Source: an uncultured Lachnospiraceae bacterium
GTDB lineage: Bacteria; Bacillota; Clostridia; Lachnospirales; Lachnospiraceae
Direction: 5' to 3'
DNA: 64,000 nt
Assembly (NCBI GenBank): GCA_964614185.1
Contig: CAZTKJ010000007.1
Location: forward strand, 5,592-69,591
Part shown: positions 43,736-46,111 of the stretch, piece after piece
Numbering within the stretch: the stretch's first letter is position 1
How the letters are laid out: each line of letters begins with the position of its first letter
Program-made: the position numbers and the translations under genes
The notes under the pieces: model-generated
What the model was told of the DNA's origin: nothing
Seen by the model: only the letters and a program-made list of their open reading frames with translations
The model's database searches: none

Positions 43736-44677
43736 CTAAATCAGCCTGTCTTCGCCAACCATGCTGGCAATCTTATTAGCAATCAGAAGCAGAGACAATC
43801 CTACAACTGACTGGAATACACCAATAGCTGTACCAAGACCGTAATTGCTGCTTCCAATACCTCTTTCATAGGAGAACCAGGAAAGAACCATGGTATGATC
43901 CTGCACAAGAGCGTTGCTCAATAACATCTGGCGTTCCATACCTACATTCAGCGCTCCACCAATATTCATGATCAGGAGCACGATGATCGTAGCACGGATA
44001 CCGGGAAGAGTAATATGCCAGATCCTCTGAAATCTGTTAGCGCCATCCATCTTGGCTGCCTCATAAAGACCGGGATCGATTCCTGCCATAGAAGAAAGGT
44101 AAATAATCGCATTCCATCCCATTTCCTTCCAGCAGTTGATAATAACAATAACCACCCAGATCAACATAGAGTTGGTACTCATAAGGTGCAGATTCGTATG
44201 TGTCAGTGTATCAATAACGCCGCCATCATTAAAAATATTCTTTGCAATACTTGCAATGATAACCCATGATACAAAGTGGGGAAGATAAGAAATGGTCTGT
44301 GTCAGCTTCTTAAAACGCATAAACTGCATTTCATTTAGCAATACGGCAAAGGTAATAGCCACCAGCGTACCCAAACCAATATCCAAAATACTGATACCTA
44401 TGGTATTGATCATTGTCTGTTTAAATAATCTATCTTGAAATGCTTTAAAAAAATTATCAAATCCCACAAAGGCTCTTTCCCAAATAGGTATTGCAAATGT
44501 TGCAGGCTTTACCTCCTGAAAGGCCATTGTCCATCCCCATAAGGGTATGTATTTAAATACAATGATCCAAATAACAAAAGGAAGGGACATTAATAGCAGA
44601 TACCGTTGCTTCCATAACAAATGCAGACTCAACTTCTGCTTATTACCCTTCCTTGCTTTTCCACTTGTTTTTGCCAT
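43736..44677 (-). CDS. carbohydrate ABC permease (MalF/LplB type)
   Basis: ISYLPHFVSWV, LYEAAKMDGA; start moved to MAKT (44677, or 44686). Confidence 0.93.
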   Translation of the reverse strand: MAKTSGKARKGNKQKLSLHLLWKQRYLLLMSLPFVIWIIVFKYIPLWGWTMAFQEVKPATFAIPIWERAFVGFDNFFKAFQDRLFKQTMINTIGISILDIGLGTLVAITFAVLLNEMQFMRFKKLTQTISYLPHFVSWVIIASIAKNIFNDGGVIDTLTHTNLHLMSTNSMLIWVVIVIINCWKEMGWNAIIYLSSMAGIDPGLYEAAKMDGANRFQRIWHITLPGIRATIIVLLIMNIGGALNVGMERQMLLSNALVQDHTMVLSWFSYERGIGSSNYGLGTAIGVFQSVVGLSLLLIANKIASMVGEDRLI

Positions 44678-44823
44678 AGACTCCATCCCTTCTGTCAAAT
44701 CGCCCAATTTTTTCCTCGTTTTTAAGCAATTCATTAGCATTTTGTTTAATTTTAACAGAATACTTCCTTCTTTAATATTGTAAATTTTAATGAGATATAC
44801 TATCATTTTTTAACATCACTAGA

Positions 44824-44852
44824 TTGTACTTTCCCATTTGCTATGGTATACT
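44824..44852 (+). promoter_or_regulatory. probable araC promoter
   Basis: TTGTAC-17-TATACT with extended TG. Confidence 0.6.
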
Positions 44853-44864
44853 TTTGTTTATAAG

Positions 44865-45100
44865 GGTTTGAGTGTCAAATGTCCTTTTAAAAATCCTGTT
44901 TGTCAGATTACACAAAAAAAATTCGTGCGCACTCCATTGCACGAATCATTCCGCCGAACCTCCTAAAACGAAAATCGTGTTCAGCAAAGGCTTCCACGAT
45001 TTTTGAGTTTCGTCTCCATCGTGCAAAAGTCGCTTGCACAAATTTCTTTTGTCCAATCTGCTATGCAACAGTTCCAATCAGGACTTTTGACACCCAAACC
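44865..45100. mobile_element. MITE-like non-autonomous element (~236 bp)
   Basis: 20-bp terminal inverted repeats, 18/20 identical (GGTTTGAGTGTCAAATGTCC vs GGTTTGGGTGTCAAAAGTCC); TTATAA on both flanks; three internal hairpins; no transposase. Confidence 0.75.
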
Positions 45101-45133
45101 TTATAAAGAAATTATTACAGGAAACTATGGAAA

Positions 45134-46111
45134 ATGGAAATGGACTATCAGACTATAACAGATCATATGGATGACACGGCGATACCGGATGATACCCGGC
45201 ACATTCCCATGCACACATGGGATGATGTCCTGCTGTCTGCCTACAGCCAGCATCATCTTTCTTCAGATTTACGGCAGAATATCATTGCCTTAGAAGGGCT
45301 AACGTATCCCATTACTGAGCATACCAGTACTTTTTTTGAAATGATCTATGTGCTGTCAGGAACCTGCTGCCATCAGATCAATCAGAATACGGAACGAATG
45401 GATACTGTTGGCGATTTATGTATCCTGCCGCCTGCTGCACGGCATTCCATCTATACATCTGATAACAGCCGCCTTGTCCATATTCTGATTCGGCCTGCCG
45501 CTTTTATGGATATTCTCCCCGGCACTCTCAGCGGGCAGGATTCTTTGGGCAGCTTCTTAAAAAGAAGCATCTATCAAAACAAAGGGGAAAGTTATCTTTT
45601 GTTCCATACGCAGCAGGAAGAAGAGGTTCACCACACCATTCTGGATATACTTAAGGAAATGTCCAACATTGACGAATATACTGACAGCATTGTCTCCGGC
45701 ATGCTTTTGGCACTCTTTAGCAGGTTGCTGCGGACGCACAAAGACTTTGTAAAGTCTTCTCCCTGGGATCCCCGCATCAATGAAATTCTTTCCATGATTT
45801 ATGACCAATACAACACCATCACTTTATCCTCTCTGGCAGAGCATCTGCATTATACGGTTCCTTATTGTTCCAAGTATCTTAAGCAGCATCTTGGAAGCAC
45901 TTTTTCCCAGCTGATCAGACAGATCCGTTTTCAGAAAGCTGAACGCATGCTTATGAATTCCGGCATGACTATCACCCGGATCAGCAAAGAACTGGGCTAT
46001 GAAGATCTGGAGAATTTCGTCCGTGCTTTCAAGCATCAGTATCAGATGACTCCCTCCCAATACCGCTTATCCAACCGCCCTAAACTTCCCCCGGTTGAAG
46101 TAAGATCATAA
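45134..46111 (+). CDS. AraC-family transcriptional regulator
   Basis: cupin-like FFEMIYVLSG region and C-terminal double HTH (LGYEDLENFVRAFK..TPSQYR). Confidence 0.92.
   Translation: MEMDYQTITDHMDDTAIPDDTRHIPMHTWDDVLLSAYSQHHLSSDLRQNIIALEGLTYPITEHTSTFFEMIYVLSGTCCHQINQNTERMDTVGDLCILPPAARHSIYTSDNSRLVHILIRPAAFMDILPGTLSGQDSLGSFLKRSIYQNKGESYLLFHTQQEEEVHHTILDILKEMSNIDEYTDSIVSGMLLALFSRLLRTHKDFVKSSPWDPRINEILSMIYDQYNTITLSSLAEHLHYTVPYCSKYLKQHLGSTFSQLIRQIRFQKAERMLMNSGMTITRISKELGYEDLENFVRAFKHQYQMTPSQYRLSNRPKLPPVEVRS

Follow-up and report, generated by a model that had tools for sequence, protein, structure and literature searches.

The window, a stretch of 64,000 nucleotides on contig CAZTKJ010000007.1 from an uncultured Lachnospiraceae bacterium, holds a 236-bp element in the leader of an araC gene. 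The best overall explanation, and in our judgement a highly probable one, is that this element is a non-autonomous miniature inverted-repeat transposable element (MITE) which folds into a hairpin, duplicates 7 bp of its target and carries a functional folded module at its apex. The conserved part of the element is this apex and not the ends, and the apex is common across Lachnospiraceae, a feature overlooked by an earlier note on the same DNA that described a non-autonomous MITE-like insertion in the araC leader. The description itself holds, as the element is multi-copy, has terminal inverted repeats (TIRs) and a 7-bp duplication, and belongs to a family with a member that is polymorphic for filled and empty sites. 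An interior far better conserved than the transposase-binding ends is unusual for a MITE and points to a cargo function.

Structure of the element and its ends

The TIRs are 21 nt long and 90% complementary (19/21), in agreement with the 20-bp inverted ends, 18 of 20 positions identical, that had been described for this site. The outward-facing TTGACA reported for both ends is also there, once on each strand (Table 1). The span first given, 44858-45106, covers a real element, but the element proper occupies 44865-45100. Similarly, TTATAA is present on both sides (44859-44864 and 45101-45106), but the duplicated target measures 7 bp and not 6.

When folded, the whole element is one long hairpin with a predicted energy of -79.7 kcal/mol on the + strand and -102.8 kcal/mol on the - strand (z = -9.1 and -10.0, respectively), and none of 200 shuffled sequences folded as well. 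The element is small and non-coding; indels among the copies break up its only internal open reading frames (ORFs), all of them short. A small ORF on the - strand, following AGGAGG (MVRAMECARILL...), was considered and rejected because inspection showed that it is not conserved in other shells, that is, in the sequences that surround the apical module in other elements.

The consensus of the family ends is the 17-nt sequence GATTCGGGTGTCAAAAG, with CTTTTGACACCCGAATC at the opposite end of the pair. Ends of the type GATTCGGGTGTCAAAAG recur in many Lachnospiraceae metagenome-assembled genomes (MAGs) labelled Roseburia, Lachnospiraceae, 'Clostridium' and Hungatella. Among elements picked for at most four mismatches per end, positions 9-17 of the terminus are nearly invariant and the positions past 17 covary between left and right. 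An alignment of the terminal 26 nt of 40 elements (A5) shows such covariation at position 5 (C-G, A-T and T-A) and at position 18 (C-G, G-C and T-A). This would be unexpected if the ends were only independent sites binding one transposase.

Copy number and target site duplication

The window belongs to contig C7 of assembly G000, which comprises 3.28 Mb in 117 contigs. A DNA search of this assembly gave 60 segments matching the element, and after merging of the blastn matches there are 44 loci, 30 of which are at least 170 bp long with 76-93% identity. The count of copies that the earlier note had proposed as a check thus shows that the element is not single copy. Several of the copies are found at contig ends, as expected for repeats that break an assembly. 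Similarity among the copies ends sharply at the inverted ends, and the flanks have a mean pairwise identity of about 31%. Deletion derivatives that lack the apical module, each of them different, are found at C18:22967-23066, C25:7746-7892, C89 and C10:70420-70545. All such core-less derivatives are singletons, which fits a core that is needed for spread without proving it.

Target duplication was analysed in 40 two-ended elements from G000 and other species, with the ends set at GATTC...GAATC. The flanking 7-mers match in at least six of seven positions in 16 of these elements (40%), compared with 2.7% in a control where the left flank of one copy was paired with the right flank of another. 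Exact direct repeats are seen at a length of 7 bp, with seven cases, and at none of the lengths 4, 5, 6, 8 and 9 bp. The targets of the family are AT-rich and resemble YTATAAG.

A presence/absence case came to light in a mouse-gut MAG species (L064), by way of the protein encoded beside a family member. The site is empty in four assemblies of this species, ...GGTCACGAATC-TATTTAG-ATAATTG (...CGAATC-TATTTAG-ATAATTG), and three assemblies have a 234-bp element between two copies of TATTTAG. The target holds the stop region of an upstream DUF6070 gene. Whatever the origin of the empty alleles, the element was gained or lost at exact boundaries. The empty site in related strains that the earlier note proposed to look for is therefore found for a member of the family, with a discrepancy of 1 nt, but not for the araC copy. 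Three other samples with an identical AraC or neighbouring permease share the insertion, and their contigs end inside the element. No empty site was found for another family member (L084), where all strains are filled. Searches of plasmid and phage collections by distant blastn with the family consensus gave no match, and searches of the literature gave nothing relevant on MITEs in Lachnospiraceae or Roseburia or on the 21-mer at the apex.

The mouse-gut locus also holds a second hairpin element (L226:1286-1430, alignment A4) with another shell and with the ends TAGGTAATTGCGAAAC. Among the strains this element is present, reduced to a remnant of 13 nt or absent. There is a resemblance between its end and its target, TAGGAAATTGTGAAAC, and inside it lies the same core in the opposite orientation (72 bits). 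In a comparison of L214 with L212 (alignment A3), the sequence immediately to the right of the element is different in one assembly, from either recombination between copies or misassembly. In G000, the copies on C42, C3:67527-67853 and C8 adjoin a second repeat, GCAAAACTCYRATTTTCGTAAGCCAAATTGG, and those at C3:26225, C3:43231 and C32:24780 adjoin a third repeat, GGRAATTGCTGTAATCGTAGTGG; different repeat families seem to insert side by side.

The conserved apical module

The apical module of about 90 nt consists of three covarying helices, a CATTCC/TCCAT internal loop, a conserved C.T mismatch, an A-rich bulge on the 5' side and an apical stem-loop. On the 5' side the core reads CATTCC-gATGAG-C-CTC, followed by the A-rich bulge of 6-9 nt and a stem of 6-7 bp. 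The loop region GTG-TTC-AGC-AAAG-GCT-TC-CAC is followed by the returning stem, GAG-T-CTCATc-TCCAT and the closing stem TTGCRC / GYGCAA. In the araC copy the usual GATGAG / CTCATC is replaced by GCCGAAC / GTTTCGTC, so the change is compensated.

A core structure of 29 pairs was examined in 73 instances, where it is 97% paired and compensatory changes are seen at 21 pairs. None of 500 shuffles was as good, and controls in which the structure was slid along the sequence were 35-47% paired. The covariance model of the core, R1, matches positions 44915-45059 of the window at 145 bits. Matches to R1 were found in 21 of 250 Lachnospiraceae genera, each represented by one genome, with at least 12 copies in several. 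The matches listed for the exact 21-mer GTGTTCAGYARAGGCTTCCAC in species-representative genomes comprise more than 115 stretches, nearly all of them from Lachnospiraceae MAGs.

When relatives are searched with blastn, only the middle of the element gives matches. The same gradient is found among the copies in G000, which were not chosen by the 21-mer: identity is 91.7% in the core, 77-80% in the arms and 63-67% in the TIRs. Outside the core the shells are wholly different between many species, and each is still self-complementary. An Rfam search of positions 44300-45700 on both strands, with E values up to 10, gave only noise. A Lachnospira MAG (L093:3690-3790) has an insert of 88 bp in the core, flanked by a 10-bp direct repeat, CTTCCACGAT, and apparently a further small element lodged within the hairpin.

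Relation to TwoAYGGAY

One sibling of the element in G000 (C73:4910-5213; L178:211-514) has the same ends, homologous arms and the flanks TTGACAA/TTGATAA. Its apex is a full-length TwoAYGGAY motif (RF01731) with 106.8 bits compared with a gathering score of 43. Of 61 genomes from the genus of the window, 30 hold TwoAYGGAY, with up to at least 38 copies. In this genus (L182-L205) the motif always forms the tip of a hairpin 214-392 bp long. Hairpins with GATTC...GTCAAAAG ends occur alongside others with near-perfect arms of about 100 bp. The near-perfect arms in L190, L191, L194 and L199 differ between genomes.

TwoAYGGAY has been classified as probably an RNA and not cis-regulatory (Weinberg et al. 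2010, PMC2864571). Its copy number varies widely, versions in Bacillota have an 'elongated basal stem', and its expansion has so far been described in the literature only as 'mobile-element-like', with the mechanism and the link to mobility unresolved (Minerva preprint 2026, 10.64898/2026.09.22.753630). The two motifs are alike in that both are multi-copy, have no explained function and cap a long basal stem in Bacillota, and in that the TwoAYGGAY copy in G000 lies in the same TIR shell. They differ in that TwoAYGGAY has two AYGGAY hairpins where the apex of the araC copy has a single apical hairpin with internal loops, and in that this apex has no match in Rfam. The R1 model does not match the TwoAYGGAY loci, and the apex in the window is therefore a distinct motif in the same slot.

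With some reserve we suggest that the apex at 44937-45026 may be an undescribed structured motif and a functional sister of TwoAYGGAY, both being interchangeable MITE heads that are needed in cis for the element to multiply. Such heads might, for instance, fold into a structure that the mobilising machinery or a host factor recognises. If this is true, multi-copy motifs of the TwoAYGGAY type with variable number would be transposon parts and not free-standing small RNA genes, which would explain a 16-year-old puzzle. The data tie both TwoAYGGAY and a widespread, uncharacterised motif to a signature of mobility consisting of inverted ends, 7-bp duplications and polymorphism between strains.

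Role of the apical module

The element would be a vehicle and its apical module a functional folded nucleic acid. The outer arms change fast and yet stay complementary, and the apex is under much stronger constraint than the ends. Among the possible roles of the module, that of a cis-acting determinant which the element needs to spread is the most likely, and is proposed here tentatively; a transcribed RNA that acts on host transcripts or proteins is less likely.

Several observations weigh against the interpretation as a mobile hairpin with a functional apex. The core is nearly without G.U pairs, and the helix mismatches, which are rare, show no excess of G.T outside one column (4 G.T, 18 A.C and 35 others). 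The scarcity of G.U pairs is unlike the pattern of a typical RNA constrained on one strand; it argues against a simple constraint on RNA only, and fits arm-to-arm homogenisation as well as selection. The invariance of the loop across species (alignment A2) is partly a result of construction, as these loci were picked by the exact 21-mer. Between co-oriented genes the + orientation of the element is found in 15 cases versus 4 in G000 and in 21 versus 13 in other species; this bias is modest (pooled 36 versus 17) and not significant outside G000. In the mouse-gut species, the filled alleles keep one extra C compared with the empty alleles when the element is subtracted, and the empty alleles may be either ancestral or products of excision or slippage. 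An empty site for the araC copy was not found in the three other samples, and the genus has no close araC ortholog. Finally, the search for an autonomous partner, with family ends at a spacing of 0.45-5 kb on either side of a transposase, was negative in G000, in the polymorphic mouse-gut genome G327 and in about 0.7 Mb of sequence from loci of other species. MAGs tend to lose copies of insertion sequences (IS), and the absence of a partner is therefore weak evidence because it may be unassembled.

If the apex were first of all a TwoAYGGAY-like small RNA, such as a sponge for CsrA or another RNA-binding protein, the MITE shell would be reduced to a vehicle and the araC copy would be an RNA gene or a decoy. 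We find this rather unlikely. Sibling elements do hold TwoAYGGAY in the same position, and there is a mild orientation bias. The conserved unpaired bases of the - strand are purine-rich (AUGGA / GGAAUG, an A.G mismatch and GA/GAA), and AUGGA, GGAAUG and GGAAG resemble the AYGGAY loops for which binding of Csr/Rsm has been proposed, an idea cited in 10.64898/2026.09.22.753630. The purine-rich bases would also suit tandem G.A pairs in either RNA or single-stranded DNA. However, although CsrA (PF02599) occurs in 137 of the 251 genomes sampled and in 15 of 21 carriers of the core, six carriers lack it, including G326 with at least 12 copies in a 100% complete genome and G318 with 7 copies in a single contig. 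A CsrA sponge is therefore not supported as a general role. Other points against a small RNA are the near lack of G.U pairs, the lack of any internal promoter seen in the element, the failure of R1 to recover the TwoAYGGAY loci and the lack of an Rfam match in the araC copy.

It is improbable that the conservation and covariation of the core are a by-product of recent common ancestry and arm-to-arm gene conversion, with no function involved. Compensatory changes do occur without wobble intermediates, the arms and even subterminal TIR positions covary too, and deletions of the kind that hairpins are prone to are frequent. However, conversion would erase the C.T mismatch, the asymmetric bulge and the internal loop, and all of these persist across genera. 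The same copies are also 92% identical in the core compared with about 65% in the TIRs, and the core is kept in shells that have no other sequence in common.

Search for the mobilising transposase

A transposase that makes 7-bp staggered cuts, and that is not of the ISL3 family, would move the element in trans. The cognate transposase with the same ends anticipated by the earlier note was not found in G000, the fetched loci or G327, and the polymorphic genome G327 holds only mini-derivatives. A scan of 250 genera for the TIR pattern gave multi-copy matches only to MITEs or half-copies. A pair of TIRs 2.3 kb apart on C14, from the scan of the whole genome, is a chance match inside lepA. The forward-only TIR matches in G293 belong to a different MITE-like repeat with ordinary genes in between. 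This repeat (L164:3495-3765) has the end GGTGTCAAAAGTCCTC in common with the family and a different interior without any match in Rfam. The IS1182-like (C117) and IS256-like (C47/C80) elements of G000 were rejected as partners since their ends, CAGACTGTAGACAAAG and GATAGTGTCAAGATTTT respectively, are unrelated or only vaguely similar. The IS1182-like element, with a transposase of 487 amino acids, breaks at least six contigs (at the ends of C1, C7, C33, C66, C80 and C93).

The ISL3 family had been named, tentatively, as the origin of the ends. An ISL3-derived MITE, with the ends of an ISL3 IS and moved by its transposase, now appears very improbable. There is a real likeness in that family ends often start with GG(A)TT and contain GTGTCAA, the targets are AT-rich, and a real ISL3 copy in a related genome has ends reading GGCTCTGTGTCAAGTG and also lies in AT-rich DNA. 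However, intact ISL3 copies in the related Lachnospiraceae genome G234, with the end GGCTCTGTGTCAAGTGTTGGGG, have 8-bp duplications (TTTTTTTA and AAAATAAA) where the present family has exactly 7 bp. The likeness to GGCTCTGTGTCAAGTGTTGGGG is limited to the 7 nt GTGTCAA, in a register that is off by 2 nt, and the rest of the ends differ. Furthermore, DDE_Tnp_ISL3 (PF01610) has no match in G000, G020, G016 or G003, all of which are rich in the element.

A REPIN-like hairpin repeat spread by a Y1 (RAYT or IS200-type) single-strand transposase, with the apex as the recognition hairpin, is hardly credible. The element forms a hairpin over its entire length and has conserved mismatches, and its pairing, without tolerance for wobble, looks DNA-like; TwoAYGGAY in Pseudomonas also adjoins REP arrays (10.64898/2026.09.22.753630). 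REP and REPIN-RAYT systems are likewise dispersed hairpin repeats with conserved imperfections, some of them at high copy number. Unlike the present family, REPINs lack the combination of TIRs and target duplication and depend on a flanked RAYT gene, and clear 7-bp duplications with symmetric TIRs are not products of Y1 enzymes. The distribution of Y1_Tnp genes does not follow that of the elements, since 8 of 13 element-rich genomes lack them and 5 of 9 element-poor ones have them, so a mobiliser of the RAYT type is not supported. No gene family is enriched beside the cores.

The araC locus

The features of the locus are listed in Table 1. The element lies in the region between araC and a divergent permease gene, and every available sample of the species has it. 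These circumstances could suggest a fixed, locus-specific operator or small RNA architecture of the araC/ABC-transporter locus, the alternative named in the earlier note, but this is refuted by about 40 copies at unrelated loci and by the duplications and presence/absence polymorphism in the family.

Table 1. Positions in the window of the element, its parts and the neighbouring features
Feature	Position	Strand	Basis and remarks
Non-autonomous hairpin transposon (MITE), 236 bp	44865-45100		Repeats, fold, copy number and target duplication
Left terminal inverted repeat, GGTTTGAGTGTCAAATGTCCT	44865-44885		Repeat search; holds outward TTGACA on the - strand (reverse complement of 44873-44878)
Right terminal inverted repeat, AGGACTTTTGACACCCAAACC	45080-45100		Repeat search; holds outward TTGACA on the + strand (45087-45092)
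Left subterminal arm	44904-44928		Repeat search; pairs with 45036-45060 (25 nt, 84%)
Right subterminal arm	45036-45060		Repeat search; partner of 44904-44928
Left copy of target site duplication, TTATAAG	44858-44864		6/7 identical to the right copy
Right copy of target site duplication, TTATAAA	45101-45107		Flank comparison across 40 elements
Conserved apical module, about 90 nt	44937-45026		Covariance model, covariation and identity among copies
Apical 21-mer, GTGTTCAGCAAAGGCTTCCAC	44977-44997	+	Exact-pattern scan
Small hairpin with T-run, terminator-like	45021-45049	+	Consensus match; right arm of the element
Mirror image of the hairpin with T-run	44927-44942	-	Consensus match
Promoter-like site TTGTAC-17-TATACT towards araC	44824-44852	+	Read from the sequence
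Hybrid promoter-like site TTGACA(45087)-17-AATTAT	45087-45115	+	Consensus scan, 10/12; -35 in the TIR and -10 in the flank
AraC-family regulator gene, 325 amino acids	45134-46111	+	Pfam HTH_18, HTH_AraC and AraC_binding; downstream of the element
ABC sugar-transporter permease gene, divergent from araC	43736-44707	-	Pfam BPD_transp_1; heads a permease-permease-binding protein operon

The promoter-like site TTGTAC-17-TATACT, said earlier to lie 12 bp before the element, is borne out by the sequence, with about 6-12 bp between the -10 of this putative araC promoter and the element. The candidate has a TG-extended -10, TGGTATACT, at 44844-44852; its -35 matches three of six positions and the site is unlisted by a consensus promoter scan. 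The statement that removal of the element leaves a short leader is correct, since the distance from the -10 to the ATG of araC is then about 38 nt when one copy of the duplication is also subtracted.

A transcript of araC from the putative promoter would carry a 236-nt hairpin as its leader. The long hairpin, together with the hairpin and T-run of the distal arm, would be expected to damp or process this transcript. It is unlikely that the outward TTGACA gives araC a useful new promoter. The hybrid site TTGACA-17-AATTAT is a doubtful araC promoter because its predicted start, at about 45122, is inside or past the AGGAA Shine-Dalgarno sequence. The locus offers a simple, testable case of a transposon that may reshape regulation in a gut commensal, in which a mobile hairpin of 236 nt would either be transcribed ahead of the regulator of a sugar-uptake operon or separate this gene from its promoter.

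Comparable effects are known from ERIC/IRU and the Correia elements (CREE/NEMIS), which are small palindromic non-coding MITEs of enterobacteria and Neisseria with TIRs and intergenic, often transcribed targets. Their long RNA hairpins alter the processing, stability or termination of mRNA, and they can supply outward promoters. The present family is also made up of small palindromic repeats with TIRs, and ERIC is likewise unusually conserved between species. On the other hand, ERIC and Correia elements have a TA duplication or no clear duplication, belong to Proteobacteria and have no apex swapped between shells, whereas the family in the window duplicates 7 bp and has an apex more conserved than its ends.

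The call for the permease gene next to the element, of 323 amino acids, was taken from other samples. Among 60 genomes of the genus there is no close ortholog of the AraC protein, the best match having 37% identity, and the locus therefore looks recently acquired or fast-evolving.

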